A DNA stretch of 64,000 bases, taken from positions 4,250 through 68,249 of IMG/VR virus record IMGVR_UViG_3300034071_001405. One strand, 5' to 3'. Numbering within the stretch: position 1 is the stretch's first letter; each line of letters begins with the position of its first letter. The position numbers and the translations under genes are program-made. Shown here piece by piece: positions 11,959 to 62,772 of this stretch. This stretch comes from a virus. The notes under the pieces are model-generated. The model was given only the letters and a program-made list of their open reading frames with translations, was not told the DNA's origin and ran no database searches.

Positions 11959-12185
11959 TGTATTACAATCCTACAGTTCGTATTAACAAACTTTTTGCAG
12001 ATGCTGTTTTTTCTAATTACAGAAAAAAAAGATATGGTCTAAAAAAATGTAAAACTACATATGAACCTGAGTACCTTAATGACATGAGAGAACTTTTAAA
12101 ACGTAATACAGAATTGAAACAGTGCAACAAAGTACTTGGTAGTTGTAGCATTTTAAAAATTGAAGAAACCATAAAAACATTATAA
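11958..12185 (+). CDS. Hypothetical protein, 75 aa (possible tail hub subunit)
   Basis: Translationally coupled on both sides by TAATG overlaps. Confidence 0.65.
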   Translation: MYYNPTVRINKLFADAVFSNYRKKRYGLKKCKTTYEPEYLNDMRELLKRNTELKQCNKVLGSCSILKIEETIKTL

Positions 12186-35859: not shown

Positions 35860-38520
35860 ATGGCAACATTTATAAAAGGTGTCAGCGACCAACTTGGTCC
35901 AATGCAATTGTACAGACCTGATTATCAGTTTCTGACTCAGGTGTATGGAACAAAACAAGCTCAATATGACCGTGGGTTTAACATGGTCAAATCACTGTAC
36001 AACTCAGTGTTAAATACTAACTTGACAAATGCTAACAATCAGTCTTATAGACAAGAGGCATTTAAAAGATTACAAGGTTCCTTACAAAGCATGTCTAATG
36101 TGGATTTATCTAATCCAACAAACATAACACGTGCACAAGGTATGATTGACCCTATTAGTAGAGATCCAGAATTAGCTTATGACATGGCAGTAACTAGCTT
36201 TCATTCAAAGCAAAAACAACTGATGGAATCTTATCGTAACAGTCAAGACCCTAAAATGCGTGGGATGTACAATGAATATTCACGTATGGATATTAACTTT
36301 GCTGAAGAAGACTTGCGTAATGCTAAACGTGGAGATGGTAGTATTACTTCTGTACAACCAAGAGAGTTTACACCTTTTGAAGATGTAAACGAGTTTCTCA
36401 GAAAAGCAGCTAAAGACCAAGGGCTAGAAATTAAACAGTCTAGTCCAGATGGACGTGGTTATATTCTAACTCGTACCAATGGTCCAGGTGCTGTACCAAT
36501 TTATAACAGTTGGGCAACAGCAACAATGGGCAATCAGTTTGACCGTCAGTTCAGTGTGATAGGCAGAGTAAATGCTGAGTCTGCTATTAGAAGTGAAATG
36601 GCTAATAAAAATGTTGGAAGAGAAGAAGCTACTAGAATGGTAGCAGAAAAACTTCTACCACAATTAAATGTGAAGCAGTCTGTTGCAGGTATTGCTGCTC
36701 AAGAAGAATATAGAAAGCTAGATGAAAAAGTTACCTTTTATGAAAAACAATTTCCAAATGGATTTCCTACAGCTAAACCAGAAATAGCTCAAGAATATCA
36801 ACGTTTAGTTAAAGAAAGAGATGAGCAAAAAACAGAATTTGAAAATGCTCGTAGTGAAGTAGGAAGACTTCAATCAGAAGGAAGTGCTTACATTGCTAGT
36901 AATTTATACAACATATATTCACAAGCTGCAAAAGACCAAACTGCACTAGCTTTTGCATCAACATTTGCAACAGCAAAACAATCTGTTGAAGTACGTCCTG
37001 ATACAACATGGGCTACTAAAGTAAGTATTGCGTCAAGAGAAAGAATAGCCGGTGCACAAATGGCAATGGCACAAAAGAAAATGGAGTTTGAGCAGTACAA
37101 GCTTGATGTAAATACAAAACTTAAAATACAGGAAATGCAAGGTAAAGGACTTATTCCAAGTACTGAATTTACAGGAGTTGGTTTTTCTGATACTCCATCT
37201 TATGCTTCTGATATGAATAGTGCGTCATTACAATTAAATAGAGATGAAGCATATTCAAGTGCATTTAATGCTGAGAATGGTTTAATAAAACTTGTAGTAG
37301 ATGATGATTCTGAATATGGTAAAGTATTTTCTTCCATAGCTAAAATAAAACAAATGGCCAATGGACAACAAGTTACATTGTCAAATGAAGAATTGAACAA
37401 CTTAAAATCTTATGGAAATAAGGTAGGTATGAACATTGATGTACCTACAAATAGTTCTGATGCAAATAATTTTCTTGATAGAATGGCTGGATACACTTTT
37501 AATAAAGCAACAGAACGTTTACAACTTTATAGCGACACACACAAGACTGGTGATACTAACCCTTATTTTAAGTCGTTTAGAAGTGGAGCAGGAGCTTTTC
37601 AAAACATGGTATCTCAACGTGAAGCTATAAACAAAGATATGAAACGTGTGTCACAAGAAGTTTTAGACGCAAATGGTAATATAAAACCCCTTTATGAAGG
37701 TGCTGTAATAAAATCTAAAATAAGTGATGGTGTTTATGACTTTGATTTTAGTAAAGTTTCTGAAGCTGCAAAAACTAGAGTAAGCAGTTTGATTACAGGT
37801 TTCAAAGACAGACAAGTTCCTGTAAGTAACCAATATACTATTTCAAAACTTACTGGTGCAGAAATAGACTTACTTGTTAAAAATCCTTATGGTGTATCTT
37901 CTGTTACAACTTCTGAGGGTGCAACTCTTGATATAAACGTTTTAAGAAATATGAATCCTGTTGACATTTCTGCATTATTTGCTGACAAAAGTAAAGTGTT
38001 TTATGACCCTGTTAGAAAGCAGGTTAAAGTTGAAATGAATGTTAGTGAAAAAGATGGTATTGCAAAGAAGTTTAATCTTAAAGGTGGACAAGCTCTTTAT
38101 CTTACAATCCCTTATGAAACTATTCAATCATCAAGAGGAGCATTAGGAAGATTAGAAGAGTATATTCCTTTTAACACATTGAACGTTTCTTCTTTAGGTG
38201 TACTTACTCCATTGCTTACAAATGCAAATGCTAGAGTTGTTGGCGAATCTTACATGAATGGAATTGGTTTTGATTATGCAGTTACAGGTGTTCCTGGTCA
38301 AAATGGTTCTAATTTACTTCAGTTTGACTATAAATATTTAGACCCACAAACAGGAAAAACAGGAACAGGAAGTCAAATGATTCCTTTTAGTCCAGGTGAC
38401 CCAGCGTCACTTGAAAAAGCTTCTGAGATTATTCAACAAGTTTTTTATAACTACAAAATAACTAGATCAAAGTACCAAGACTATATAAACAGTAACGATA
38501 CACAAACCAACAATGATTGA
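35860..38520 (+). CDS. Putative cargo/ejection protein, 886 aa
   Basis: Helical, Cys-free; position between cargo 1-like gene and the giant genes. Confidence 0.55.
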   Translation: MATFIKGVSDQLGPMQLYRPDYQFLTQVYGTKQAQYDRGFNMVKSLYNSVLNTNLTNANNQSYRQEAFKRLQGSLQSMSNVDLSNPTNITRAQGMIDPISRDPELAYDMAVTSFHSKQKQLMESYRNSQDPKMRGMYNEYSRMDINFAEEDLRNAKRGDGSITSVQPREFTPFEDVNEFLRKAAKDQGLEIKQSSPDGRGYILTRTNGPGAVPIYNSWATATMGNQFDRQFSVIGRVNAESAIRSEMANKNVGREEATRMVAEKLLPQLNVKQSVAGIAAQEEYRKLDEKVTFYEKQFPNGFPTAKPEIAQEYQRLVKERDEQKTEFENARSEVGRLQSEGSAYIASNLYNIYSQAAKDQTALAFASTFATAKQSVEVRPDTTWATKVSIASRERIAGAQMAMAQKKMEFEQYKLDVNTKLKIQEMQGKGLIPSTEFTGVGFSDTPSYASDMNSASLQLNRDEAYSSAFNAENGLIKLVVDDDSEYGKVFSSIAKIKQMANGQQVTLSNEELNNLKSYGNKVGMNIDVPTNSSDANNFLDRMAGYTFNKATERLQLYSDTHKTGDTNPYFKSFRSGAGAFQNMVSQREAINKDMKRVSQEVLDANGNIKPLYEGAVIKSKISDGVYDFDFSKVSEAAKTRVSSLITGFKDRQVPVSNQYTISKLTGAEIDLLVKNPYGVSSVTTSEGATLDINVLRNMNPVDISALFADKSKVFYDPVRKQVKVEMNVSEKDGIAKKFNLKGGQALYLTIPYETIQSSRGALGRLEEYIPFNTLNVSSLGVLTPLLTNANARVVGESYMNGIGFDYAVTGVPGQNGSNLLQFDYKYLDPQTGKTGTGSQMIPFSPGDPASLEKASEIIQQVFYNYKITRSKYQDYINSNDTQTNND

Positions 38521-41500
38521 TAATACTTTTGACTTTGGAATGGAGAATGCTGCAGGATTAGGGAATAAACCTGTTCCAATGAACGACTTTAGTGCAGCAT
38601 TTAACCAAATGAATTCTGAGACATCAGATAGGATGCTTAGTGACAACTCACGTCCTATGTCATTAATGGAAAGTTTAAATGCACCGGTAGGACCTAAGAC
38701 AATGACTTATGTGCCTAATAGTGCGGTTGACATGTTCAGATATCAGGAAGGTTTTAAAAGTCAGTATTTTAACCCACTTGATACAAGCAATTATGAAAAA
38801 TGGGCAGACAAAGAAACATTTGGTTCTGCCTTAAATAAAGGTTTTGATAGTTTTGGTCACAAGTTTGGTAACACATTCATAGACTACTGGAAAGGTTATG
38901 GTCGTATGGCTGATGCTTTAGTGCACATGGACTGGGATAGAATGCGTCCAGATGAAGCAACATTGGCAGATCAGTATTACAAAGACCAGATAGACATGAA
39001 CAAGAACTTTGTATTTGAGAAACCAGAAAACGAAGACAGCATATTATCTAAACGTACAATGAGTGAGTTTATAGGAAACGCTGGTTTTGCTCTTGGAACA
39101 TTTGCAGGTATTGGTCTTGAGATTGCAGCAGACGTTGCCATTACATTTTTATCTGGTGGTGCAGGTGTTGTTAGTTTTGGAGGAACAGCTGCAAAGCTTG
39201 CTGCTACCCAGACAGCAAAACAAGCTGCAAAAAGTGGTTTTAGATTTGCTGATGCTTTAACAGATATTGGAAAAGGATTTAGTTATGGTAACAAATCTGC
39301 AGAAGAAATTTCTGCTGCAAGTAAAGTAATTGCAAACATGGATGAAGCTTCTGCTATAGCAAATGGCAGTAGAAGTGCTTTGCGTGATTCTATGGGAGAA
39401 ACGTTTTCTGTTTTTACAAATCACTTATTTAACATTACAAAATCTAAAAACTTTTCAGAAGTTTCTGCAAACTTGTTAAAAAGTACACCTTTACTAGGAA
39501 CAGGAATACGTTCTGCTGAAAAACTTGCTGCTGCTTCTAGAGCCGGAGCAACTACTGGTGAACTGATTGGTGTTGGACTACAAGGTGCTAGACGTGTGGC
39601 TCAAGAGTTAAACATGTCTGCAACAGAAGCTAGTTTTGAAGCTGTTACATCTTATGGTGATACACTAGATAAGATGGCCCAACAGTACAAGATAGACAAT
39701 AATGGTGCTGTACCATCTCCAGAAGAATTTGAAGAAATGCGTAAACTTGCAATCAGTGCAAGTTCTGCCAACTATAATACAAACATGGCCTTGTTATTGG
39801 CCACAAACAAAATACAGTTTGGAAACTTGTTTAATCGCTTTGTGCCTGCAAACAAATACATGAACGAAGTTGCTGAAAATTTACTTGTAGTAGAAGGTAA
39901 AGCTGGTACAGGAATTTTTAGAAAAGATGGTTTCCTTGGTGCGTATGGACTAATTGGTAAAGTAGGAAAAGAGTTTGGAAAGAAAGAAGCAGCATATCAA
40001 TTTAGCAAAGCATTTGCAAAAGACTTTTTGAAGTTTCAAGTTTCTGAAGGTATTCAAGAAAACATGCAAGAAACATCTGCTGCAGCTTGGAAAGATTATT
40101 ATGCTGGTCAGTTTAACAGTACAGAAATGTCTTTGTCTGAAGCATTTGGAGAAGGAGCTTCACAACAATTTACTAAACAAGGTTTAAAGACTTTCTTAAT
40201 GGGAGCTTTAACAGGTTCTTTAATCAGTATTCCAACATCAATAACAAGTAAGTCATTAGAAGCAGCTAACAGAGCTGTAATAAATAGACAGTACGCAAAC
40301 AATCCTGGTTCTAATCCTTTAATTGCAGCAGAAGCTCAATTGGATAAAAACTTAGATATATTAAACACAAGTCTAAAACAGTTAAAAGAAGGTAAATTTA
40401 AAGACAAAGTATTTAATTTTAGTGCACAGATTGATGCTGCACAAGAACAAGCTGAATCTGCATCAAAAGGTTTACGTTATGAATTTGAAAATGGTAAAGA
40501 TAACGCACTACTTGCTGCGGTAGCGTCTGCACAAAAAACTAACTCTATTGATGTGTTGTATCGTGCTGTTAAAAGCATGGGACAAGACATGACAAATGAG
40601 GATTTTGAAAAAAGCTTTGGTGTAAAACTTGAAGATACTAAGTACAGAACACCATCTGAATTCTCAGAAGCTGTAGCAAAGGATATTAAAAAGTATTCTG
40701 ACACTATGGAAGGAATCAGAACAAAGGTAAAATCACAACTAGCTGACCCTTTTGAATTTGCTGAAGGTAGTAGAAATAGATATGTTGCTACATTATTGCG
40801 TAGCGCTCAGGAAGATGCCATACAGGTGCTTTCAATGAACGCTATAAAAGGTGACATGTCAGCAAAACGTGCAAAGCAAGTAGCAGATGATTTACTTTCT
40901 ATACCAGGCATGTCAAGGTCTTCTGACTTTGCTTTAAGAGTATTGACTAATCCTGGTTCTATTGAAGGTGAAATAGGAAATCTACTAGGTGAAATAAAAA
41001 TTCTACGTGAGAACATTGAAGCAGAAGGAATTGAAGCTCAAACAAAAAAAGAATTAAAAGAACAATTGAGCTTGAAATTAGAAGAATATGAGCTAATTGA
41101 AAAATGGAAAGGATATTGGGAAAACCGTCAAGTTGTTGTTGGAACAAATGAAGATGATGAAGAAGTAACTAAAGAAAGTATATTAGACATCTTTAAAGGA
41201 AAGACAATAGAAAAAACTCAAACAGTTAAAGATGAGAATGGAAATGATGTAGAAACAGTAGATAGAACTTATGACCCCACAGACCCTGAAGTCATAGAAA
41301 CATTTAGACAACTGATGAACATCAAAAATAGACAGTCAGGTTCTAATGAGGTAATATCTGAGGCTTCTATGAGAGATGGTTTTCAAAAGATATATGACTA
41401 TATCAGACTTGACCGTGACACCAAAGACTATATGCGTTCTGTTGATGTTTTGTCAAATCCTGAAAACTTAAGAATAACATTGGGTAGAATGGCAGATGGC

Positions 41501-43441
41501 AAGTTTAAACATAACCTTATCAATCATGTGGACCCTTTGTTAAAACAAGCTGAACTTGCAGCTGAATTGATAATTATAAAACTAGGAATTGTTAATGAAA
41601 ATGATAGAAGAGAACTGTTTAATGAGATGCTAAACACTGTGTATGAAAGTGAAAATTGGAAAAATCTAACAACTCTCATAAGTAATCCTGATTTAGGTGT
41701 AGCAAACGAAGATTACGCTCAAAAGACATACTCTGCATTGATTAAAGAAATCTTAAAAAAAGAGCAAGAGTTAACACTAAAGTATAGTCCTAAAGAATAC
41801 AACAATGATATTTCTCAAGAAGACTATGACAAAATCATTGTTGAAGGAAAGATTGACACAACAACAAAATATCTAATTGCAGCCAAGTTATCAAATGGAA
41901 CTAAGTTGTCAGAACTTGAACAAAAGGTATATGATATACATAAGTTGGAAATTGACAAAGAAGTAGATTTACCATCAGATGCTAATACACCTATTGCAGC
42001 AGACACAACAACCATAGAAAGTGGAGTTACCGCTGAAACAATAATAGAAGATGAAATTCCTGAAGCTATTATACCTATTCCTTATATAGATGAGAATGGT
42101 GAGATTTCAGAAGACCCTGCTGAAACTGCAAATGCACTAAAAGCTGATATAGAAAGAAGAAGAAAAGAAGAATACGCTAAAATTGATGCAAAATATTCAG
42201 AACAAATAGAAGCATGGGAAAAGAAAAGAAAAGAAAATATTGAAAGAACTGGATTAGCAGGTGATACTAGAGCCTTGGATGCTCTAAAAGGACTAGTCTA
42301 TAATGCTAAACAAAAAGTAGATGAAATCTTAAATAAAGAATTAGATGAATTAGATACTATTGAAGATAAAAAAGAAGATATAAAAAACGCATTAGATTAT
42401 ATTTTAACTGGTAGATATAACGGTAAAGCTGGAAGAAAGAGACAATCCACTGAAGTAGGAGAAAAGATAGCACAAAAAATAGCAACAGGCTTAAGTAATC
42501 AAGGATTAATAAAACAAGACGGAAAGTTGTTTTCAACTTTAGAGGGGGACAATCTAGGGGTAGCTTGGTCGGTAGGTAAGTATTTTGCTGAAGAATTTAA
42601 AAATGGATTTGAAGCAGAATTAGCAGCTTTAAACACACCTGGACTAAGTGTCCAAGCTTCTACAGAAACAATACCATCAACAACTACAACAAACATGGTG
42701 GATGTCATAAGTGAAAATGAAAATTTACCTGGGGAATTTGTTGATGAATCATTTTTTGGTATTACACCTACTGAACCTGTTATAGAAGAAGAACCTGTAG
42801 TTACTCAACAAGAAACACCATTTGCACCTCAAGGAAATTTAGAAGAAGGATACGATGTAGTTGACATAAATAACAATAGTGTTAACCCTGAAAAGTTTAA
42901 ATCTGAAGAAGAAGCTGCTGTACTTGCAGAAAGTTTAAATTCTACACGTGTTGATTTGGATTTTGTAAAATCATTCTTAGGAGCATTACCTGTAGGAACA
43001 GAAACTGAGATGACTAATAAAATGCTAGAGATTGGACTAAAGTCAATGAACGCTTACAACAAACGTAAAGGTACTAGTCATGCTACATTAGAAGAATACT
43101 ACAACACAGGAGATGGCAGATTTTTACTAGAAGCAAACAGAGAGGCTTTACTCACTGGTAAACCTGTAAACTACAATAGAAAAAAAGCTAAAGTTTCTGG
43201 ATTAGTCATATCAGAAACACAAGTACCGTTGTTTGAAACACCATCAACAGGTAGAGCTACAAGTTTAACTCTGCAAAGTTTAGAAACACTGTATGCTAAA
43301 GTTTTAGAATTTAGAAAAGAAGCAGCAGAAAATTCAAATAATTTTAGTAAATTTGTAGAGACGGAAAAGGTGGCTCAAACTCCAGTGACAGAATCCTCTA
43401 TAATAAACAAGCTTCAAGAGATTTCTAACTGTTTCTCTTAA
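38513..43441 (+). CDS. Giant ejection protein with putative membrane-inserting segment, 1642 aa
   Basis: Hydrophobic Gly/Ala-rich AGFALGTFAGIGLEIAADVAITFLSGGAGVV; EGIQENMQ motif; single Cys near the C-terminus. Confidence 0.65.
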   Translation: MIDNTFDFGMENAAGLGNKPVPMNDFSAAFNQMNSETSDRMLSDNSRPMSLMESLNAPVGPKTMTYVPNSAVDMFRYQEGFKSQYFNPLDTSNYEKWADKETFGSALNKGFDSFGHKFGNTFIDYWKGYGRMADALVHMDWDRMRPDEATLADQYYKDQIDMNKNFVFEKPENEDSILSKRTMSEFIGNAGFALGTFAGIGLEIAADVAITFLSGGAGVVSFGGTAAKLAATQTAKQAAKSGFRFADALTDIGKGFSYGNKSAEEISAASKVIANMDEASAIANGSRSALRDSMGETFSVFTNHLFNITKSKNFSEVSANLLKSTPLLGTGIRSAEKLAAASRAGATTGELIGVGLQGARRVAQELNMSATEASFEAVTSYGDTLDKMAQQYKIDNNGAVPSPEEFEEMRKLAISASSANYNTNMALLLATNKIQFGNLFNRFVPANKYMNEVAENLLVVEGKAGTGIFRKDGFLGAYGLIGKVGKEFGKKEAAYQFSKAFAKDFLKFQVSEGIQENMQETSAAAWKDYYAGQFNSTEMSLSEAFGEGASQQFTKQGLKTFLMGALTGSLISIPTSITSKSLEAANRAVINRQYANNPGSNPLIAAEAQLDKNLDILNTSLKQLKEGKFKDKVFNFSAQIDAAQEQAESASKGLRYEFENGKDNALLAAVASAQKTNSIDVLYRAVKSMGQDMTNEDFEKSFGVKLEDTKYRTPSEFSEAVAKDIKKYSDTMEGIRTKVKSQLADPFEFAEGSRNRYVATLLRSAQEDAIQVLSMNAIKGDMSAKRAKQVADDLLSIPGMSRSSDFALRVLTNPGSIEGEIGNLLGEIKILRENIEAEGIEAQTKKELKEQLSLKLEEYELIEKWKGYWENRQVVVGTNEDDEEVTKESILDIFKGKTIEKTQTVKDENGNDVETVDRTYDPTDPEVIETFRQLMNIKNRQSGSNEVISEASMRDGFQKIYDYIRLDRDTKDYMRSVDVLSNPENLRITLGRMADGKFKHNLINHVDPLLKQAELAAELIIIKLGIVNENDRRELFNEMLNTVYESENWKNLTTLISNPDLGVANEDYAQKTYSALIKEILKKEQELTLKYSPKEYNNDISQEDYDKIIVEGKIDTTTKYLIAAKLSNGTKLSELEQKVYDIHKLEIDKEVDLPSDANTPIAADTTTIESGVTAETIIEDEIPEAIIPIPYIDENGEISEDPAETANALKADIERRRKEEYAKIDAKYSEQIEAWEKKRKENIERTGLAGDTRALDALKGLVYNAKQKVDEILNKELDELDTIEDKKEDIKNALDYILTGRYNGKAGRKRQSTEVGEKIAQKIATGLSNQGLIKQDGKLFSTLEGDNLGVAWSVGKYFAEEFKNGFEAELAALNTPGLSVQASTETIPSTTTTNMVDVISENENLPGEFVDESFFGITPTEPVIEEEPVVTQQETPFAPQGNLEEGYDVVDINNNSVNPEKFKSEEEAAVLAESLNSTRVDLDFVKSFLGALPVGTETEMTNKMLEIGLKSMNAYNKRKGTSHATLEEYYNTGDGRFLLEANREALLTGKPVNYNRKKAKVSGLVISETQVPLFETPSTGRATSLTLQSLETLYAKVLEFRKEAAENSNNFSKFVETEKVAQTPVTESSIINKLQEISNCFS

Positions 43442-43473
43442 CTGCTTTTTCCTCAACAAATATACATAATATA

Positions 43474-55400: not shown

Positions 55401-56166
55401 AGAACAAGCTCAGACTACAACTTCTCAAGTAAATGATGCCACAATAAAACTGTCAACACCTGAAAAACCTATTTTTGTATACTCAGATGGTTCTGATATT
55501 AAAGGTACAGGTAGATTAGGATTTGGGGCAGTGTTTGAAAATGGTGGTGTAATTTATGATTTATCAGGTACTGAAGAATCTGCTGAAGTTAAACGTTTAG
55601 CACAAATGCATCCAGATGCTAAGTTCTCAAATCCTACAATGGAAATGCTGGCTTTAGTGTCAGTGTTAAACACTTTCAAAAACAAAGCTGAACACATTGT
55701 TATCAATCAAGACTATACAGGTGCTGTAAACTATGATGGTTTATGGCAAAAAGCAGAAGGTTCTGCACAACGTCAACCTAAACCATGGAAGGCAAAAGAG
55801 GCCTATATTAAAACATTAGTTGATGCTGGTGTAAGAATCATAGACCAAATTGAAAAGAACGGTGGCAGTGTTAGAATTAACTGGGTCAAAGGACACTCTG
55901 GAAACAGAATGAACGACTTAGCTGATAGAGCTGCAAAAAGTAGAGAAATATTTAACAATATTCCTAAAGCTTATGACAATGCAAACAAAACAATACTTGA
56001 CATGCAAAATCTAAACATGACAGCTGCAGTACTTGATACATTGTATGAACAAAGTAGTAAGCGTATGACAAAAGATGCTTTTAGTAAAGCAGCTACAGAA
56101 ATGGTAATCAACATGAGAGCAACAACAACCCCAGAAAATATCCTAGAAAAAATTAAGTGTCTATAA
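43474..56166 (+). CDS. Virion RNA polymerase (two-barrel, crAss-like) with zincin, AlkB-like and RNase H domains, 4230 aa
   Basis: RIPT (~51439) and GSDFDVD catalytic loop (DFDVD 51556-51570); DYFKR, DGQ and DGAK segments; size and position. Confidence 0.9.
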   Translation: MACQIQTDKYTDVVLDLIKLDSSLYTNFDNAAAFILKSGLSPEQKMMAVHNIAHIYNGLADLDPEYFKKGKVADVINIVTMMENPQEYVQTASEFFNVKKTAPLKVSSIIDKIDALGGMTSVNRMDLNGPDGVLNTIKNYFAVTTFENLDERTKLLESLSASLRGQIIDRADEQDHKDFLLGLIDDTMAGLDKKSFFIPISEIADVAGLDNVLVILKSEQMVEALRENDKLYKLNPDNSLEEIPADQIVSVKDARLSDRSTSNAGEHVFYEDTMLSNFKVVAVNPEESGIVLNKLDEMRSPSSAIRIKAVRISDVADKRIERIQNVDASNKEMRMLANRQHETFENSTQVAYLQSTSNGKVLTLSRPKASEQTFVIVGEIIGSGELFYLYSTENMTFVNSDNSTELVDFTNPVHLKEVQRLSVKDNLGVKSQLSELDLEHMSNAASIYKGFKDSLLPQLQAQFDAGATSVDITTDFKNVYDINQTRGKKSKTVLSSEMVTDPTLSKTLTIFNRDTKQREERKIPFIYSAVEEKEFSLINMLRSNELIEYTNTEGKVRQVSQLTYAELLGLKDNAVKEILKTTDPNQKNLMIKFRPDGTMTYRILENVRQLDQMEEFANFITSLNDVLLSGKQRNQEVESFEKTQFTFRPQTSGKFGDRPLYVSFSTSAQGRLQVEIRPTSPTNRYGFIKEKDPITNKYKNQGQFNFVLDETLIVNTARALKGEGKLIGKIKSEFPALANFDLNKPEELFEFYRTVNNMTRFTSPHPLLQELANKVTEVQAGFAQSLIDNVINKLEEKTAMFPQFMKNLREDLTYDGEFRPYYLVARKSDDGTFRTNITYSRGYTKPKDGVDSLQRFKTNYDNYLLVNAGFLRMNITPKEVISMSTPAPAVVTAVQMEPVEKVHVNNPAQNITSTEIITDESDIPEIELFSIADGEIELETEQERLQAAEWLSQTYSQLGVSKEELSDAIDLSKVEGTVLGAIKDRVIYLNDKIKSKGVIYHEAFHGVFRYLMSAPQREELINFVRNNKTYSSKFTDTALQEFAKQRNYVYDKERMANLQAEEILADGFQNYMNEGGKPRGIIAKFMQMLKRIIEFFTKHSNYIDNVYGRVKRGYYSTDVINSGIYENETAFVLIPGLKEIIPNTEGTGVAQNVSFLSTEDANQLVYMMAHYFVKDNAGFQGETFEQKFDRIAKTVLDYEFNMDKLIAKKPEMRDEIIKRFGNTYKQYRFALGARMLGETIHDINLSGLDQYDKRELVNTVDKTIENGKGEESKKILMKLVKKEYQSIMAILDGKEVDEDEMSPELVEEMFDEDGAPVVRDNDETGTVEEETESEDYDSGLGEHNRLESQSRQIRQFFSSIRYEQYIPELGITIPRMISGNKMYSLLLKLNSDIDTDKSIQHIKTTAETQRMDGFLSTADDLDAIYKQIVNDTKMVNGVPQSNLQLYNMLVDVFDGTEIDYMMTDVKTRENTSDGITTVETYDYTIKDKVLFSDVNKRKKDIVASIITKHAEMGGTKEYKAAVQKLITGINKITTDTKFILSDDISQGDRLNKLTEELHASMAAVGVNVPKSLVRLSILAIDKTENMVTHNPDEFQPSVLEHYENHSKFVSEKKYLEKEFFTDMAVIFTKAAKDSHTKFAQTLDDKNISDTNVNRFNSILGKASVYIIKYDPTELQSTVLNAEGKPIYRYIKHTPATTVAQLLRSKGLEKTLAEDPYFKSQLEDFFKANPMMGGILEKDDSELTKKVEVMLNNFKFGLYGGVAQTFNSKFKQGKSFKNIDDKTMYIVHLLSFLNRTTYRQVVTDKDGVEKEVEVETFMRSFTQLEASQTNFLMTAMYENYSDTKGLVKDAAGRIKITGLLEGVVKQEYKRIAREWANREQNKKDFDSRASNKLLLKYNGVLSKEDVTKSDVEDKDLRAYKFNKLADFFKANPELYANTDQNGLFDFAKENTPYEDIPVEVKNALLDGLNQYALKSLETHIDKLTDLQVINKRTTPKFVKKTVLDPATGLPAKVNGKIEYYYGPKTDAEGNVESPFEYYDSSLIAPLLKKDSRPSVNIIDSYQKVGVGSFNQVGGVQSGFSNLEGLVQDAFFNFWANSLVFNDLLDGDSAMNVKDSVDYFKRQKKNLATGSNMKQGTHRVAVMNTITGYINNRYPEYGPFYSVDEIKEFFADRTDISDEVKEEVINAYGTKGMMHYIFDGQSTSSIMHQMDMYETLGRLTPEIKELLIEKHYRKLNEEEVKLMQSYKIVNNPKKTVTASRNSYHKQSENYIDRNDVSYMEIPKDILSQGSEAIKDYRNQLHDVFKGLYNEIYTLRKKIQDAKSIGEDPSEYVDAIQKKTITIHSFYKPMAHREILHNLLNAMEYHQIDQLMDTEASKNATMLPIDYFAESKELGATKPYIDLAFSSFEVENRYKYLQVETSGVKDIVKFSVQSKALIAADLINLLDIANASNKEVTESDIKAIEKVAEALVEYQETLKELGVSNLANLKTILRKDGDFDIGKVFNLIRESLESQGAPSSTLKLFDVTPEGTPVHSPNLPGIRNMLEYYFFSQYSKHITDEKGSGFKHIHMSSLGYNVLTDENGKTLLDKEGNIVTTDIYRRNPAKYPNAKFRPLGVTTEVKDGITTYYVEAIVPLPFFKSDEHRAFYMKNLSKMFGVRIPTEDKRSMIAMKVVDFIDSSNLTGVIVPHIAHLLAGSDFDVDALYGQTYAHYFNADNKPVLYGDYSAYKSESIGKFVEFVQYMASDKDMKKAVDAEREKISEIKVDDYVGSTNARLLAGYVSERLVDDEDTLREFDAILDAFEKYGLPVNLENFVAKPEYAKSVRPVYQNANLAAKLKILTNEAVYKFLYISERSSVDRFISIAQAFGNEVEEYSGQHNQYTIDGVVTTKKTTSMNKDGIGITARINKFLALASQYGLELKSEQVIWAFQNVTSTEGDNIDFQMKKYNTFGTLNDNDERVIELIGNILGMFADGAKKPIPAALYMNQVNAGVTLAMVGVGLQPEFAFGFNFIPEIRNAVDSVLAVRSAVSESNGNNFTFLNNEVKNELNDLIRKNPKEFEALKQLGVITNQSQAYRVVVQRENISMEFEANKLDKEKLNNNTLTSGDIGYKIKAVVKTGSMDPATNKKADKNSTIDLTEVQQRMVLLQMYADQAQQTFAIGRAGSLLDMFKKLNPKFTTFDKLLNNIKELKDSTDKSIFTEESTKRIFEENQVWPQLLAAMEDLYEQAGKLFLERTEFFAPIKNLFESVFTDHSQIAKIITSFVAIRKYQMSMPGSRTSSNEAMNNLIAQDDNNLIETFTAEYPFTNTLGKELEEMQKKYPTNKFLQVLRVDKTENTAVTPSGRNVNESMIKMISKSKAKGKYADEISDDAYMLMLKENMFMKKLFYHEMLRTGLQYTPGSFLQLLSPDLQLPFSKYITEFISNLEETKGNRYKLVGAIKNSMGPEFTDQDVYSMFDELFLQMAHAATKEIGNNRIKIVDRFSFKDSTLLMQSFKFQKENPKEKFDVVAETLRRFMGQAPVSKAEAYTATSTDPKTKKAYEEILIDMSVPGPTLPQVTETTMAELGKKLGVRPAFDDPGNYMFPLMFTLGKNTYMLQGVGDQMNNKSFGESMIKSIVGTGKYINVGQKAKYTLVPDKLTTGTISSIGLNKDVSEKYIAYSNKKARLPFEPAIEEVEVVEREVTSFGERIIDGVYLRKDSLTKEEQLEMFQLLKPYLEQQATKSNKGTFANKMIGLGLRWDYLSNNPGRTAVNIPNIIDPKSKTKYGYFTVAANGEPLGAIPARLKQLMSKATGIDATNYDGAIINIYDDKTFISSHNDVDESIDAVKYPVIVANIGGPGNFAIERVGIQKPLELNAGDSYVFGLDGSNRSVYHRTFANAQKGFLPEIITSSDGKTYNAGSYRISITLRRVMPLSEGMPKTPAKTIVPSQVETTPATQPSTTAEIVEDAPIEVEQTDTANEMVGTEDATSMLGAMFAQMQEQAQTTTSQVNDATIKLSTPEKPIFVYSDGSDIKGTGRLGFGAVFENGGVIYDLSGTEESAEVKRLAQMHPDAKFSNPTMEMLALVSVLNTFKNKAEHIVINQDYTGAVNYDGLWQKAEGSAQRQPKPWKAKEAYIKTLVDAGVRIIDQIEKNGGSVRINWVKGHSGNRMNDLADRAAKSREIFNNIPKAYDNANKTILDMQNLNMTAAVLDTLYEQSSKRMTKDAFSKAATEMVINMRATTTPENILEKIKCL
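46474..46670 (+). other. Zincin metallopeptidase motif in RNAP polyprotein
   Basis: HEAFH ... EEILAD. Confidence 0.8.
54538..55194 (+). other. 2OG-Fe(II) dioxygenase (AlkB-like) domain in RNAP polyprotein
   Basis: IINIY...HND (54910), ANIG, LNAGDSYVF, YH (55081), RISITLR. Confidence 0.85.
55471..55940 (+). other. RNase HI domain in RNAP polyprotein
   Basis: VYSDGS, NPTMEMLA, INQDY, WVKGHSG, NDLADRAA: complete D-E-D-H-D set. Confidence 0.88.
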
Positions 56167-56169
56167 CCT

Positions 56170-59100
56170 ATGAATGAAACATGTCCTAATATAAATACAC
56201 CAGAGTGGAAAGCTCTAGTAAGTGCTGTTGGTGATGGTAATGCTAATACAGCATATGGCCTAAACAGTAATAAAATACCAACAGTTGAAAAAGCACGTGA
56301 AATTTTAAGCAAGTTGAAAACTGAAGAAAAAGATGAACAATTTACAAAGAGTTCAGATGCTTTTAAGTTAGAACGTGCAAGAGCTCAAATGACTGTTCTT
56401 GAACGTGCAAGTTTTTCTGCAAACGGATTGCAAAAAGAAACACTCAAAAAGCTGATTGTAATGAACAAAAACCAACAAGAGTTTTTAAAAAACAACCTAG
56501 AGTTGGCTAGAAAAGGTATGCCCACAATAAAAACACTTTCTACATCATCATACATTGGTTCTTCAGATTTTACAGGAGATGCAAAAGCTTATGAAGCATT
56601 TAAGTATTTTGGTACATTTGAGCATGAGGTCTTAGAGCTTGGTCAAATGGAAAGTTTAAAAACAGGTGTTAATATCATGCAAATTCTTACAAGAGAATAT
56701 TTTGATAGTACACTTGAGAACTACAAAAAGAAAAATCCTTTCTTTATTGAAAACCTTAGTGAAGATGAAATGTATGATATGACCATAGGTCTTGCTAAGC
56801 ACATTGATGTTTTAAATGACAAAGGGTATCTAATACTACCAGAGATTACAGTAACAGGAACAACACGTACAGGTACAACAGTTGTAGGACGTATAGACTT
56901 GTTGTTAATAGACAGTCAAGGAAGAGTTAGTATTTTTGACTTTAAAACAAAAAAGGTAAAAAACTTAGTTTACACTGATCAACTGACAGGTAAAAAAACA
57001 ATCAATAAAGAATATGCCTTTAATCATCTAGCAATACAAACATTTGGTATAGATAACAAAACTCAAACTGTAATGACACTTAAAGGTCAAAATCGTACAG
57101 CTTATGACACATGGACATTACAAACTAAGGTTTATGAAAACATGCTAATACAAAATGGTCTTAATGTAAAGGACCAAAACATCTTAGCTTTAATGTATCA
57201 AACAACAGATGAAGGTGTGTTTGAAGGTTCTGCAATTCACATGTTTGAAGAATCAAATTATTATGATTATGCAAATACAGCAGCAATTCCTGACAATAAT
57301 GGAAATTGGAAAAATGAACCAAATGCAAATTTTCAAAAAATAAAAAACTTGCGTGACACCGTAGATTATGAAATGCCAATAGCTGATGAATCTGTTGAAG
57401 AATCTAAAAAACGTTTTGATACGCGTAACTTAAAACTCAACTCAAAACAAGATGTGATGTTGAAAAACAGACTTCAGGAATCAGTTAACTCAGAATTGCA
57501 ACAAGTATTAGATAAGTTAAGTAGTGTCAAAAAAGAAGTTGACCCATTACAATATGAAATACTATCAACTAGACGTGAAACATTGAGAAGATTTCAGGAC
57601 GTTCTTAAACGTACTGAAAATGACAGCGATTTATCTTTAGCTATTAACTTTTCTCTTGCATTAGATGCTGTAGAGGATGACTTAATACAATTGTCAAATC
57701 TGGTAGACAAAGCAATGGAAAGTTTCAAATTAAACAAAGATTCTTATTCATCAAAAGAAGGTGTTAAGATACGTGAAATTTATGAGAAAAGTCGTGGGAT
57801 AGCTCAAGTATTCAGAACACTTCAAGAAATAGTAACAAGTGCAAAAGAAGATCCAACTAATAAAACAATCATTGATGAAACACTTGAAAATCGTTTAACA
57901 AAAATTTATAGTGCACTTAGTGTAATAGAAGGTTCGTTTGTCCAAGTAGCTTTACCCACTGTTATACAAGTTCTTAAATCTCCTGGTGAAACAGTATTTG
58001 TTCAAGTAAATGCTGAAATGAAAGAAGGTCTTCAAACACGTTTACAAAAATTAGAAAAAGAATTGACAAATCTTCAAGCTGGCAAACCTGCAAGTTTATT
58101 AAAAGGCTTAACACATAGAGCATTGCTTTTTGTTGATAAGGACTACAAAATAAACATGGCTGAAAAAATGGCTGAAAAGTATGGTGAAGCTTCTGCAGAT
58201 TTGATAGTTCAAATTCAAAGTAAGCAAAAAGAAATACTGAAAGTAAAATCTTTAATAGATGGTGGATTGCAATTTTCTGATGAAACATTAGAAAAATACA
58301 TAAATGGTGTTACAGACCCAGCTTCTGATTTTTATGCTGGTAGTAGAGAAACATTTACAGGAAGTTCATTATTGTCAGGTTTAGCACTTGACAAAGGTAT
58401 TGCAGGTGCGTCAAATTCTGACTTAGCTATTTCTGCATTTACAATGATGCTTAAAAACGCTGAAGGTCAAGCACGTAACGCAATACAAAATTCTATTGCA
58501 GCAATGCAGTTTGACCAAAAACGTGATAAACTTTTACAGCGTTATTCAGTGAATGAGTTGAATGCTATGGTGAGTGAATCTAGAAAGTTTACGTTTATAG
58601 ATAAAAAGACTGGAGAAAGAAGAACTATAAATCGTCTTTACATGAACAAACCCTACAGTGAAGAATATGAGTCTACTTACAGAGAGTACAACATAAAACT
58701 AGGTGAGTTTAGAAAAGAAATTGCAGCTTTAAAAGTACAAAATCACACAAAGAAAAATACACCAGAAGGTGTAGCTGCAGAAAAAGCATACCTTGATAAA
58801 GTTTCTGAGAAAGAAAAATATCAAGATGAGTACATTCAGTGGATGTTAGACAACGCAAGACTTCCTTATGTAGACAAGTTTTACTCTTTGCAAAAGTCTA
58901 TGCCTAATGAAATACGTGACAAGTTACAAAAACGTTATTTAGAAATAGAAACTATCACTTTCCAAGTGGGTAAAGGTAATGAGGTCTTGCTTGAAGAACA
59001 TGACTTTGAACGTCTTGAAGAACTTGAACAAGAAATAAGAACATTAAGAAAAAATGCTAAAGACATTAATCCTGAGTATGCTGAATACATGGATGATTTT

Positions 59101-62100
59101 AATGAGCTGTTTGAGTGGGATACTAACTTTTCTTACTATGAACGTATGCGTAACAATGCTTTATCTAAATACAAGGACACGCATCCTGAAGAATGGGCAA
59201 AGTGGCAAAAGTCTAATGAGATAGTAAGACCAACTAAACGTCCAGAACTTCCAGAAAATCTTGTGCAAGGTAACAATGTTATGTATCAAGACCAAATAAT
59301 GACTGTTAGATTTCAAAGACCTGAAGGTTCTGTAGAACTAGTAGATTCTGATGGTGTATTGTTAGTTGCACAACGTAAAGATTTAGAGTCTCTTTCATGG
59401 TATGAACGTTTGAGTATTCTATATGAACAACGTGCTCAACTTTTATTAGGTGATCCTGAAGTTGAAGAGCTTGCAAAAGAACGTGGTAAAATACTTTCTC
59501 AATATAAAGTTGGAGGACGTCTTAGGCCTAAGTTTATGAGTGAAGATGATGTTACACGTCTTGATGAAATTGAAGGAATGCTTGAGATGATTTATGAAAG
59601 AAAGAAAAACTCAAGTAATGAATTTACAAAAGAACAACGTAAAGAGCTAGCATTAATATCTACACAAATTAACAACTTAGTAGATAAAAAAGTATCTCAA
59701 GGATACATTGATGTATTTGAAAGTAATTTAAAAGTTCTTTACGGAGCACAAAAAGAATTATTAAAAGCTGAGAATGACTTGGCCATTGCAAAAACAAATG
59801 GTGACCGTGCAGCTATAGCTGAAGCACAGATTGTGTTAAATAAAGCAGAAGCAAACTTTGGTAAGGAAGAAAAAGACTTTAGGAAATGGTATGATTTACA
59901 TCACCATAACAAATATGTTTCTATATTAACAGGTGCTGATGTGCGTCAAAACATACCAAAAGCTTACAATCTAGAAAGACTTCCACCTGCAACTTTGCAT
60001 AGTCAGTATATGGAAGTTGTTCCACATCCTAAATACAAAGTAAAAAAAATAAAAGAGTCAGCAAAAAACCCAGACTTTTTACAAAGCGCTGAGGGAATAC
60101 CTTTGCCAAAAGCAATATCAAAATCTCCTACTGGTGAATTTGTAATTACTCCTGGTTATGAGAACTCTGCTAACGTAAGTACAAAATACAAACAGATGAT
60201 GAGTAATCCTGAAGTATTTTCTTTCTATAACGACATGATGAACATGTTTTTTGACTTACAACAAAAAGTTGAAGGAAGAAAAGTAGGATACATGATCCCT
60301 GGATTTTTAGCATCAAAAATTGAAAACATTACCACAAAAGGTGTAACAGGTTCAATAGGTGCTGAGTATGAAAAGTTTAAAGAAAATACTTGGAGACGTC
60401 AAAGTGCTGTTGACAGAGTAGATGGTTACTTTGGTGAACTAAATGGTAAGTTGCGTCATGGTTATACAGAACAACTTCCTGAAAACTTACAAACTAAAGA
60501 TGCAATAGGTGCTATCATGAAGTATTCTATAGAAGCTCATTATAACATTGCAATGCAAGAAGTGGCTCCTATGGCAGATACATTCATTGCATATTTTGAA
60601 TTAATGTCTTCCAATCTTAAAGAAAAAATTAAAAGTGGTACTAAGTTTTCATACACAGATGATGCTGGAAACGTTATACCTGTTGACATGACCAAACGTT
60701 TAGATGGTCTTGAAAACATGTTGTCTATTACACGATATGAGCGTAACAAACATCTGTATGGTCAGTATGAATCAGGTACTGCCTTTAATAAGCTTTATAC
60801 CAAAAGGCTTAACATGATTTTTTCTTACACTTCTTTTATACGTATAGGATTTGACGTTGCCAACCAAACAAAAAACTATATTTCAGGTAACGTGCAAGCA
60901 TTCATTGCTGCAGGTGGTTTAGATTCTGACAAGTACACACGTAAAGATTACAAGTGGGCAAAAGGTAAAGTATATGGATATGATGGATTTTTACACAACT
61001 ACTTCCGTGATTATGGTAGAATAGGTGATGTGAGTGAATCCACCATGCTCTACAGGTTTTTCAATCCTGCACAAAAAGATTTTATGGGTTACATGAATGA
61101 GGTGTCAGGAACAAAAAAACGTAAAGCCTTAGATACACTAACAAATATTCAAGAACTGGGATACTTGTTACAAGATAAAGGTGATACAGAAATTGCAGTA
61201 ACTGTAATGTACTCTGTGTTAAATCACAATCGTTATCGTGTCATTGAAAAACTTGACAAAGATGGCAAGCCTGTGTTTAAAAAAGATGTAAATGGTGAAG
61301 ACATAACCATACCGGCTCATGAAATCTACTACAAAGATGAAAAAGGTTTAATGCAACGCAGAAAAGATGTAGAGTATGATCAAGCAGATGAAAACCGTTT
61401 GCGTAACATTATCTATTCTGAGATGCGTAGAACTCAAGGTAACTATGCCAAAGCTGACCAAACTAAGTTTGAAGACAACGTTGTTGGTAAACTAGTGTTT
61501 TATTTTAGAAAATATCTTGTACCACAAATGTTAAACCGTTTTGGATACTTGCGTCCTAACTGGGAAGGTTCTGAAGCTGCTATTGGATACTGGAGAGCAG
61601 TTGCCATTGCATTGCGTTACTATGGACCAAACCAAGTTCTGAAACACTGGATATACGGAAGTAAGCACATGAGCAACACTAATCAGAACAAGCTAGGCAG
61701 TTTGTTTACTAGAAAAGTAGCTCAAGCAAAAAGAGATGCAATATTTATGGCGGTTTTAAGTACTATGAGCATAATGGCCTTAATGTATGTCAGAAAAAAA
61801 GATGATGAAGATGAAGAACTAAGTATGATGGAAGGTAACTTGATTCGTATCTTATGGGGTGTTCAAGGTGAGGCTACTTCAATGTTTCCTATTGGAGGAG
61901 GTTCTGAGGAATATATCAGAAACTTTACCACACTAACAACTTACACAAGAGAGTTTAAAGCAATTAAAAAAGCAGCAAGTCATCTTATATATTATGGTGT
62001 AGCAATGAGTATGAATGGAGGAGAAGAACCAGATCCAGATACTGATGGTGAATTATACCAAGACGTTTGGAAAGAAGCTTTCTACTCACGTAAGTCAGGT

Positions 62101-62220
62101 GCTTATGAAAAAGGTGATGCAAAAATCAGAAAAGACTTGATGGATTTGTCAGGTATAAAGAACTTCAGAGACCTTATTGACCCTAACTACAGAATTGACC
62201 AAATGAAGCGTAATCAGTAA
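56170..62220 (+). CDS. Giant cargo protein with N-terminal PD-(D/E)xK nuclease domain, 2016 aa
   Basis: GTFEH, E, GRIDLL...IFDFKT (56887-56946), LQTKVY; C-terminal QGNY...FRKY block. Confidence 0.78.
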   Translation: MNETCPNINTPEWKALVSAVGDGNANTAYGLNSNKIPTVEKAREILSKLKTEEKDEQFTKSSDAFKLERARAQMTVLERASFSANGLQKETLKKLIVMNKNQQEFLKNNLELARKGMPTIKTLSTSSYIGSSDFTGDAKAYEAFKYFGTFEHEVLELGQMESLKTGVNIMQILTREYFDSTLENYKKKNPFFIENLSEDEMYDMTIGLAKHIDVLNDKGYLILPEITVTGTTRTGTTVVGRIDLLLIDSQGRVSIFDFKTKKVKNLVYTDQLTGKKTINKEYAFNHLAIQTFGIDNKTQTVMTLKGQNRTAYDTWTLQTKVYENMLIQNGLNVKDQNILALMYQTTDEGVFEGSAIHMFEESNYYDYANTAAIPDNNGNWKNEPNANFQKIKNLRDTVDYEMPIADESVEESKKRFDTRNLKLNSKQDVMLKNRLQESVNSELQQVLDKLSSVKKEVDPLQYEILSTRRETLRRFQDVLKRTENDSDLSLAINFSLALDAVEDDLIQLSNLVDKAMESFKLNKDSYSSKEGVKIREIYEKSRGIAQVFRTLQEIVTSAKEDPTNKTIIDETLENRLTKIYSALSVIEGSFVQVALPTVIQVLKSPGETVFVQVNAEMKEGLQTRLQKLEKELTNLQAGKPASLLKGLTHRALLFVDKDYKINMAEKMAEKYGEASADLIVQIQSKQKEILKVKSLIDGGLQFSDETLEKYINGVTDPASDFYAGSRETFTGSSLLSGLALDKGIAGASNSDLAISAFTMMLKNAEGQARNAIQNSIAAMQFDQKRDKLLQRYSVNELNAMVSESRKFTFIDKKTGERRTINRLYMNKPYSEEYESTYREYNIKLGEFRKEIAALKVQNHTKKNTPEGVAAEKAYLDKVSEKEKYQDEYIQWMLDNARLPYVDKFYSLQKSMPNEIRDKLQKRYLEIETITFQVGKGNEVLLEEHDFERLEELEQEIRTLRKNAKDINPEYAEYMDDFNELFEWDTNFSYYERMRNNALSKYKDTHPEEWAKWQKSNEIVRPTKRPELPENLVQGNNVMYQDQIMTVRFQRPEGSVELVDSDGVLLVAQRKDLESLSWYERLSILYEQRAQLLLGDPEVEELAKERGKILSQYKVGGRLRPKFMSEDDVTRLDEIEGMLEMIYERKKNSSNEFTKEQRKELALISTQINNLVDKKVSQGYIDVFESNLKVLYGAQKELLKAENDLAIAKTNGDRAAIAEAQIVLNKAEANFGKEEKDFRKWYDLHHHNKYVSILTGADVRQNIPKAYNLERLPPATLHSQYMEVVPHPKYKVKKIKESAKNPDFLQSAEGIPLPKAISKSPTGEFVITPGYENSANVSTKYKQMMSNPEVFSFYNDMMNMFFDLQQKVEGRKVGYMIPGFLASKIENITTKGVTGSIGAEYEKFKENTWRRQSAVDRVDGYFGELNGKLRHGYTEQLPENLQTKDAIGAIMKYSIEAHYNIAMQEVAPMADTFIAYFELMSSNLKEKIKSGTKFSYTDDAGNVIPVDMTKRLDGLENMLSITRYERNKHLYGQYESGTAFNKLYTKRLNMIFSYTSFIRIGFDVANQTKNYISGNVQAFIAAGGLDSDKYTRKDYKWAKGKVYGYDGFLHNYFRDYGRIGDVSESTMLYRFFNPAQKDFMGYMNEVSGTKKRKALDTLTNIQELGYLLQDKGDTEIAVTVMYSVLNHNRYRVIEKLDKDGKPVFKKDVNGEDITIPAHEIYYKDEKGLMQRRKDVEYDQADENRLRNIIYSEMRRTQGNYAKADQTKFEDNVVGKLVFYFRKYLVPQMLNRFGYLRPNWEGSEAAIGYWRAVAIALRYYGPNQVLKHWIYGSKHMSNTNQNKLGSLFTRKVAQAKRDAIFMAVLSTMSIMALMYVRKKDDEDEELSMMEGNLIRILWGVQGEATSMFPIGGGSEEYIRNFTTLTTYTREFKAIKKAASHLIYYGVAMSMNGGEEPDPDTDGELYQDVWKEAFYSRKSGAYEKGDAKIRKDLMDLSGIKNFRDLIDPNYRIDQMKRNQ

Positions 62221-62313
62221 TTTTTGACAAAATGATTGTGCAACTTTCATAAATAATGTTTATATTATATAGAGGAGAACTTTCATTTACACTTTACAAA
62301 ACAACAACTTTTG

Positions 62314-62772
62314 ATGTCTACAATATTCAACTTACCAGATTTAAAAATTACACCTAAAAAAAATACTGAAATAGGTTTTTTAAAAGTCTATGTAAAAAAC
62401 AAACATTTCAAATATTTAGACTCTGAAGGATTTGAAAAGGATATAGTTCTTGAACGTCCCTTAGATGGTTTTGCTTTACAGACTACTGTTTCTCAGATAA
62501 CTTCTTCTGATACAATAATATCTGCATTAGGTAAATTGCAAGCAGGTATAAGTTTGTTTTCAGTTTCTGTTCTTTTTCAAACAGTTACACCTTTTACTTA
62601 CATTGCACCAGAACCAATGACTATTCTTAGTGTGTCAAACCCAAATGCTTTAACTTTTACAATTACAAGAAACAGTTTAGAATACACATTAGGTACTCCG
62701 ATTGCTCAGTATGATACAATTGTTGTTACAGTAAACTCAACAGGATTTATAAAACTTAATTGCACATTATGA
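62314..62772 (+). CDS. Putative tail fibre-associated protein
   Basis: ITSSDTIISALGKLQ motif typical of fibre proteins; preceded by a late-promoter-like TATATTAT. Confidence 0.5.
   Translation: MSTIFNLPDLKITPKKNTEIGFLKVYVKNKHFKYLDSEGFEKDIVLERPLDGFALQTTVSQITSSDTIISALGKLQAGISLFSVSVLFQTVTPFTYIAPEPMTILSVSNPNALTFTITRNSLEYTLGTPIAQYDTIVVTVNSTGFIKLNCTL

Follow-up and report, generated by a model that had tools for sequence, protein, structure and literature searches.

crAss-like phages are the most abundant viruses of the human gut. How they store several megadaltons of protein in the virion and inject it, a multi-part RNA polymerase included, is described as an open question in the crAss001 atlas (PMC10172136) and in the 2026 N4 paper. 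We examined a 64,000-nucleotide (nt) stretch of viral DNA, positions 4,250 to 68,249 of IMG/VR virus record IMGVR_UViG_3300034071_001405 (the whole stretch is hereafter called the window), in which three giant genes follow one another on the plus strand. They encode protein A (1642 amino acids (aa), 38513..43441), protein B, the virion RNA-polymerase protein (4230 aa, 43474..56166), and protein C (2016 aa, 56170..62220, with a weak PD-(D/E)XK match), all of which are probably packed into the phage particle. An inspection of the letters alone (the sequence-only reading) had proposed that cysteines at the facing ends of these proteins join them into one thread for ejection. Here we find that these cysteines are conserved in relatives, are lost together where genes are fused and are gained together at new breaks. 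We consider it likely that A, B and C, as first, middle and last link, are connected by head-to-tail inter-protein disulfides into a cysteine-depleted chain that acts as a 'virtual polyprotein'.

A script recount of the open reading frames (ORFs) of the window agreed with the sequence-only reading at every cysteine count and coordinate. Seven consecutive proteins, together 12,478 aa, contain four cysteines (0.03%). The first four, putative cargo proteins of 1961 aa (24599-30484), 746 aa (30496-32736), 997 aa (32844-35837) and 886 aa (35860-38520), all on the plus strand, have no cysteine and lie outside the cysteine-linked chain. The four cysteines all fall within the 7,888 aa of A, B and C (0.05-0.06% of each protein). 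The sole cysteine of A is C1640 (codon 43430-43432), 3 residues from the C-terminus in the tail ...ISNCFS; B has only C3 (43480-43482, start MAC) and C4229 (56158-56160, end ...KIKCL); and C has only C5 (56182-56184, start MNETC). The junction DNA of A/B and B/C was inspected directly; the spacing is 32 nt from A to B and 3 nt from B to C, and the 886-aa gene (35860-38520) and gene A (38513-43441) overlap by 8 nt. As a control for chance, we scored 133 non-module ORFs, each shorter than 800 aa, taken from the window and from regions of seven named phages; they contain 1.14% cysteine overall and have a cysteine in the first 8 residues in 4 cases and in the last 5 residues in 7. Chance was rejected as the source of the terminal-cysteine pattern.

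Terminal cysteines were counted in every returned homolog of B (67 sequences, 29-100% identity), C (119, 23-99%) and A (120 listed of 146 matches), using the first 8 and last 8 residues of B, the first 13 of C and the last 8 of A. A C-terminal cysteine was found in 118 of the 120 A homologs and an N-terminal one in none, and 117 had no internal cysteine; the two misses are 1045 and 1162 aa long, one of them labelled partial. All 67 B homologs had the C-terminal cysteine and 61 had the N-terminal one, and 45 had no internal cysteine. Five of the six N-terminal misses start within the protein, and the sixth is a fusion, P0066. The N-terminal cysteine of C was present in 112 of 119 homologs and a C-terminal one in none; the seven misses are 1302-1814 aa long, compared with ~2000 aa for the others. 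Internal cysteines made up 0.0016-0.034% across the three sets. In alignments of window B with 24 of its 67 homologs (A2) and of window C with 50 of its 119 (A3), C3 and C4229 of B and C5 of C are invariant.

This conservation holds down to ~23-30% identity. The C-terminal tails vary by clade around a constant cysteine (CFS, CFK, CF, CS, CI, CNS, CL, C; KCL, NNC, NCGG, ECVGEL), and the terminal codons switch between TGT and TGC among relatives; these synonymous changes place the constraint on the protein and not on the DNA. Conservation across Crassvirales, on which the sequence-only reading had staked its proposal, is seen in the homolog sets and in the named phages described next. The terminal-cysteine pattern is strongly non-random.

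In phi14:2, gp078 (1797 aa) has its sole cysteine at -1 (negative positions are counted from the C-terminus), gp077 (2180 aa) has cysteines only at 3 and -2, and gp076 (1421 aa) has its sole cysteine at 3; the record marks all three as structural proteins verified by mass spectrometry. The crAss001 proteins gp47 (sole cysteine at -3), gp50 (5, -1079 and -9) and gp49 (sole cysteine at 5) were likewise detected in virions by mass spectrometry (PMC10172136). The gp47 gene lies on the opposite strand, and DAC15 has the same terminal-cysteine pattern with its A gene on the other strand, so the pairing in 'gene order' that was originally described is not required. crAssphage gp45, annotated 'fused to zincin protease', has a C-terminal cysteine at -2, and gp44, annotated as the catalytic subunit fused to another RNA polymerase subunit, starts MSC and has no C-terminal cysteine. 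The crAss002 proteins gp32 and gp33 show the crAssphage pattern if gp33 is taken to begin at an internal MSC, 32 codons downstream of its annotated start. This Met-Ser-Cys (L012 17088-17186) matches the N-terminus of crAssphage gp44, and the annotated gp33 start is probably too early. Several IMG/VR loci show a similar start offset, with the first cysteine at residue 15-35.

We then scored junctions in the best 80 of 411 relatives from an IMG/VR pattern scan with the catalytic regions of eight phages (alignment A1). The survey took ORFs of at least 300 aa beside the protein with the DFDxD catalytic motif, with ATG starts and complete, non-nested junctions; a junction was excluded if one of its ORFs continued past the edge of the locus, and links shorter than 300 aa (L064, L075) were ignored. 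A junction was scored as having both cysteines when the upstream one lay in the last 8 residues and the downstream one within 8 residues of a Met. Both were present at 76 of 89 junctions, neither at 7 and one at 6. The junctions with neither involve a cysteine-free cargo neighbour beside an A+B fusion, or an all-in-one or interrupted protein. Of the six one-sided junctions, five can be accounted for: at L020, translation from a GTG start yields M-A-S-C, and the other four come from L049 and L080, which are crAss001-like, with A on the other strand and its cysteine at -4, and the B C-terminal cysteine at -9. Spacing at the junctions varied between -12 and 586 nt, and the cysteines were kept even where the partners lie on opposite strands.

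Fusion of the genes revealed which cysteines belong together. In A+B fusions (Fpv1 gp33, P0066 and many IMG/VR loci) the A/B pair is gone and the B/C pair is kept; in B+C fusions (crAssphage gp44 and crAss002 gp33) the B/C pair is gone and the A/B pair is kept. The 4401-aa gp33 of the Flavobacterium phage Fpv1 has a single cysteine at -2, and its neighbour gp34 starts MAC. P0066 (5108 aa), which two BLASTP comparisons suggest is an A+B fusion, combines an N-terminal part resembling A (22% identity across 393 residues, E 1e-9) with regions like the RNA polymerase and AlkB/RNase H parts of B (46% identity); its first 2295 residues are cysteine-free, and the C-terminal cysteine is retained. All-in-one proteins without any cysteine occur in L051 (5242 aa) and L092 (at least 6693 aa), and the 4460-aa all-in-one protein of cr10_1 has no N-terminal cysteine. 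Loss of cysteines at fusions had been predicted, and it is only the pair of the fused junction that is absent.

Where the module is broken further, the additional proteins carry a cysteine at each end. In L018 a 665-aa protein with cysteines at 5 and -2 occupies the place of the AlkB/RNase H module of B and is followed by a C-type protein starting MSPC; in L044 an 859-aa protein with cysteines at 3 and -1 is followed by a protein starting MKC. Further links are a 345-aa protein in L027 (cysteines at 4 and -2) and a ~150-aa ORF in L064 (3 and -3). The L018 and L044 breaks fall in stretches that are cysteine-free in fused relatives (window B and L040 B). The ORF directly after the 345-aa link (L027 ~12400-12500) has a start that resembles what we take to be a GIY-YIG homing endonuclease, which hints at mobile endonuclease genes at some of the breaks in these giant genes. 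Breaks lie ~608, 1420-1880 or 2510-2695 aa before the DFDxD motif, or are missing on that side, and ~386, 880-1320 or 1535 aa after it, or again are missing. The A|B break is upstream of a zincin-type motif in the window clade and downstream of it in crAss001 and crAssphage, and the crAss001 region that matches the zincin part of B lies in protein A (gp47). Because break positions differ between clades, the splits arose several times, each with its own cysteine pair.

The joint loss of cysteines at fusions and their joint gain at breaks pair the A C-terminus with the B N-terminus and the B C-terminus with the C N-terminus, which favours the pairing that was first proposed. A circular B, or a pair between A and C, does not fit the co-loss and co-gain data. 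Head-to-tail links of this kind give the chain one N-to-C polarity, as in the single polypeptides of relatives, some of which produce the whole module as a single chain exceeding 5,000 aa. The A/B/C pairing is well supported by comparison and by a precedent in cyanopodophage A4.

In A4, a cryo-electron microscopy study shows a disulfide between gp27 Cys1715 and gp26 Cys5, with the C-terminal helix of gp27 inserted in gp26 (PMC12002296, PNAS 2025). In the record of Anabaena phage A-4L, gp27 (1717 aa) has its sole cysteine at -3, gp26 (1114 aa) has its sole cysteine at 5, and gp29 has none. The window and A-4L are alike in having giant, consecutive internal proteins whose near-sole cysteines lie at facing C- and N-terminal extremes. 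Compared by BLASTP with ten A-4L proteins, eight proteins of the window (A, B, C, the muzzle-like 1994-aa ORF and the four cysteine-free cargo ORFs) gave no match at E<=0.01, and the resemblance would therefore be one of function rather than of family membership. The two systems also differ, in that A4 is a 42-kilobase podophage without a virion RNA polymerase and has one link between two proteins, whereas in the window the polymerase is itself one of three links, and chains in relatives have four or more. The A4 bond is reported as a structural detail and not as a rule that tracks splits and fusions (PMC12002296).

The scarcity of cysteine also has a parallel. According to a study of Schitoviridae, ejection proteins (N4 gp50 and DEV gp71/gp72/gp73) contain 0.00075% cysteine versus 0.865% in the proteome, a suppression ascribed to passage through the envelope and periplasm (PMC11445570). 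The giant polymerase/ejection proteins of the window are similarly almost cysteine-free (0.05-0.06% in A, B and C; 0.03% over the seven consecutive proteins, compared with 1.14% in the 133 other ORFs). However, the virion RNA polymerase of the N4 type belongs to a different polymerase family, is made as one polypeptide and shows no terminal-cysteine rule, whereas the crAss-like module is often split, with a cysteine pair at each break. This module type (phi14:2 gp66/PDB 6VR4; crAss001 gp47/gp49/gp50) consists of a DFDxD polymerase flanked by two giant virion proteins; the phi14:2 preprint (10.1101/2020.03.07.982082) and the crAss001 atlas (PMC10172136) describe the three as virion-borne and, in some phages, as one polyprotein. 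The window clade departs from the crAss001 type in its A|B break upstream of the zincin motif and in the extra AlkB-like and RNase H domains of B.

Disulfide-linked and cysteine-depleted ejection proteins are already known; what appears to be new, on sequence comparison, is a terminal-cysteine rule that tracks splits and fusions in Crassvirales. The crAss001 atlas, the phi14:2 preprint and the 2026 N4 paper mention neither cysteines nor disulfides for the module proteins. Within the open literature, including PMC10172136, the phi14:2 preprint, PMC11445570 and PMC13434306 (subscription journals and supplements were not visible), we found no account of a terminal-cysteine rule in Crassvirales or of disulfides linking their RNA-polymerase-module proteins.

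How might such a chain work? In the mechanism that we propose, A, B and C would be split pieces of a giant virion RNA-polymerase/ejection module. At each break, the upstream cysteine, 1-9 residues from the C-terminus, would dock with the downstream cysteine, 2-8 residues from the N-terminus, and after the particle leaves the reducing cytoplasm the two would oxidise to an inter-protein disulfide. A disulfide is the most economical chemistry for these cysteine pairs, and crAss001 virions do contain disulfides, namely in the tail and in gp57 (PMC10172136). In the window phage, oxidation would yield a 'virtual polyprotein' of 7,888 aa, joined head to tail with N-to-C polarity. The scarcity of other cysteines would keep this chain free of loops and branches so that it could pass the tail and envelope partly unfolded, and the reducing host cytoplasm would free the parts. 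The disulfide of crAss-like virions, its part in ejection and its reduction are our inference, and so are the ordered passage of the chain as one thread and its release by reduction. The sequence-only reading had this thread led by a membrane-inserting protein, which must stay conjectural: A does have one borderline hydrophobic segment (Kyte-Doolittle 1.63 at residue 192), but C has one too (1.77 at residue 1856).

The same terminal cysteines could pair as proposed and yet only lock a complex stored in the capsid, of the pre-ejectosome type, whose parts separate before or during ejection and never form a single thread. In A4 the bond stabilises a helix-in-cleft contact within a layered pre-ejectosome (PMC12002296), and the constrictions of the crAss001 tail, less than 50 Å wide, led its authors to propose partial unfolding only (PMC10172136). 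On the other hand, the links are strictly head-to-tail with cysteine-free outer ends (0 of 120 A and 0 of 119 C homologs), and peptide bonds substitute for the cysteine pairs in fused relatives, which fits an equivalent of a linear polyprotein better than a storage lock. The A4 authors themselves suggest a 'chain reaction' at ejection (PMC12002296). We regard a pure storage lock as unlikely.

It is more doubtful still that the terminal cysteines bind some other partner, be it a second copy in a homodimer, a protein of the capsid or portal, or a metal ion that they share. Such partners would accommodate terminal cysteines that stand alone, as in crAssphage gp47 (-2), crAss002 gp30 (-8) and a 153-aa ORF of the window, and crAss001 gp57 does form disulfide-linked homodimers (PMC10172136). 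They would not account for a fused junction losing both of its cysteines while the pair of the other junction stays, nor for both cysteines being gained jointly at new breaks. A usual metal site also needs more than two cysteines, and no His or Cys residue near them is conserved across clades.

Nor do the cysteines look like leftovers. Cysteine suppression is known in ejected proteins (Schitoviridae, PMC11445570), and in principle interior cysteines could have been purged and those at the ends merely tolerated, or the junctions could carry a signal in the DNA. Tolerance would have to explain near-total conservation over hundreds of homologs, outer ends that never have a cysteine and a background terminal-cysteine rate of 3-5%; a DNA signal is at odds with synonymous cysteine codons, a spacing of -12 to 586 nt and opposite-strand partners that still have their cysteines. 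We consider both versions very improbable. Protein ligation or splicing by a split intein, of which the cysteine pairs would be agents or remnants, could likewise restore a peptide-bonded polyprotein and would suit cysteines on both sides of each break and fused versions in relatives, and split inteins too build a covalent chain from separately encoded pieces with a cysteine at the junction; however, they join the pieces by a peptide bond and depend on folded halves of ~100 and ~35 residues, whereas the cysteines lie 1-9 residues from the chain ends (2-5 in the window) with no room for intein halves, and Pfam gave neither a Hint nor an intein domain in A, B or C, making this route scarcely credible.

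Several observations weigh against the disulfide-linked chain itself. Internal cysteines, one to four per protein, occur in 22 of the 67 B homologs. The habitat of gut crAss phages is anoxic, and retention of the cysteines there is not obviously expected if these serve a disulfide. Some terminal cysteines have no visible partner (crAssphage gp47 at -2, crAss002 gp30 at -8 and the 153-aa ORF of the window); gp47 (L010) and gp30 (L012) are smaller cargo proteins upstream of the module. One locus, L075, lacks the C-terminal cysteine beside a downstream MAC protein and is the sole unexplained exception of the junction survey. At L075 12150-12900 there is an overlapping frame with a cysteine-containing continuation and a small ORF (...CKI) before the MAC protein, which may reflect a frameshift, faulty assembly or genuine variation. 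Because assembly takes place in the reducing cytoplasm, the bond could form only after release or lysis and cannot drive packaging. The A4 gp27/gp26 precedent holds by analogy, with no BLAST similarity to the window proteins. In the crAss001 atlas the cargo is unresolved, the word 'cysteine' appears 0 times and disulfides are reported for the tail and gp57 only (PMC10172136). Finally, the phi14:2 authors propose that fused polyproteins are cleaved into parts (preprint 10.1101/2020.03.07.982082), which would make a permanent link unnecessary. A predicted complex of B 4150-4230 (from A2) with C 1-300 (from A3) scored 0.11 and 0.09 (mark 0.32) and speaks neither for nor against binding.

The identity of the three proteins was examined through their domains. 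The DFDVD catalytic motif of a crAss-type virion RNA polymerase lies at B residues 2695-2699 (51556..51570, plus strand), and the G and the three D residues of the DFDxD region are invariant in the eight-sequence alignment A1. In a single pairwise BLAST comparison, B 2473-3017 matched residues 1149-1659 of phi14:2 gp077 (PDB 6VR4, 'DNA-dependent RNA polymerase') with 21% identity and E 7e-8. A phmmer search with B 2001-3400 (E<=0.001) and a search with the A2 profile (E<=0.01) found no match in PDB, so that the link of B to 6VR4, by pairwise BLAST only, is weak but consistent. A zincin-type HExxH motif occupies B residues 1001-1005 (46474..46488, plus strand), with Y1000, H1001, E1002, F1004 and H1005 invariant in A2; here B 877-1021 matches crAss001 gp47 2023-2177 (BLAST E 1.8e-5). 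B also matches crAss001 gp50, and C matches crAss001 gp49 and the PD-(D/E)XK stretch of gp47.

The C-terminal accessory module of B (54538..55941, plus strand) consists of a 2OG-Fe(II) oxygenase domain, AlkB-like (B 3689-3905, Pfam PF13532, E 1e-12), and an RNase H domain (B 3999-4156, Pfam PF00075, E 5.6e-11), which PHROG also labels RNase H. This block is common to B and P0066 (46% identity); other B relatives lack it or have other domains in its place (PF08719 and PF18760 in precomputed Pfam annotation).

The window covers nearly all of a 68,249-bp single-contig assembly of ~34% G+C, and its large ORFs are all on the plus strand. Judged from its gene content, the window holds the block of structural and cargo genes of a distant crAss-like phage, because PHROG matches identify the portal (1587-4313) and major head protein (5734-7383), the closest named relatives of the capsid protein are Leptolyngbya phage Lbo-JY46 (27%), Cellulophaga phages and crAss-like phages, and other proteins resemble crAss001 gp44 and gp45. 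Specifically, the 1994-aa ORF is similar in sequence to the muzzle protein gp44, and the 746-aa protein has weak matches to the cargo protein gp45 and to the PHROG 'minor head protein and DNA pilot'. The module lies after the portal, capsid, muzzle-like and cargo genes and has the zincin motif inside it, a position that fits the crAss-like RNA-polymerase block.

The earlier statement that external virion proteins are cysteine-rich agrees with ORFs 11207-11788 (193 aa, 8 cysteines, 4.2%), 12185-13753 (522 aa, 22 cysteines, 4.2%) and 13777-14301 (174 aa, 12 cysteines, 6.9%), all on the plus strand, and with ORF 18615-24599 (25 cysteines). The first three are probably disulfide-rich external tail or fibre parts, and two of them end in cysteine-containing tails (...TIC, ...PACV). 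Directly after C, the 153-aa ORF (62311-62772, plus strand) has a single cysteine at residue 151 (...LNCTL), which has no visible partner, the C-terminus of C being cysteine-free; over residues 7-85 the ORF is similar (38% identity) to the beginning of a 392-aa ORF located 3' of C in L001 and L002. Homologs of the four cysteine-free cargo proteins in L003-L007 have no cysteine or one close pair. Internal cysteines of cargo proteins, where present, tend to be close pairs, such as C92/C95 in the 748-769-aa homologs and C326/C331 in the 1961-aa homologs (L003-L007), C390/C398 in crAss001 gp45 (L008), C211/C219 and C273/C281 in DAC15 gp080 (L011) and -23/-20 in A-4L gp28 (L095). Such short-range pairs would make no long loops.

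If A, B and C are joined in this way, the three 'RNAP-associated proteins' (RNAP, RNA polymerase) of crAss-like phages would be the functional equivalent of the single N4 virion RNA-polymerase polypeptide, and the chain would account both for the strict cysteine avoidance of the cargo and for the many split and fused architectures of the module. The pattern also provides a sequence signature for annotating cargo chains and start codons, as for crAss002 gp33. More tentatively, and with a little less than even confidence, we suggest a general 'terminal-cysteine code' in Crassvirales and, independently, in at least one cyanopodophage, extending to ordered entry and reductive disassembly. Under such a code, any break in an ejection-polyprotein gene would be repaired post-translationally by a head-to-tail disulfide, giving one linear, loop-free chain of up to ~1 megadalton per particle; the order of links would set the order of cell entry, and the reducing host cytoplasm would dismantle the chain. 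A code of this kind would explain how these giant genes could be split repeatedly, sometimes beside homing-endonuclease-like genes, without loss of function.

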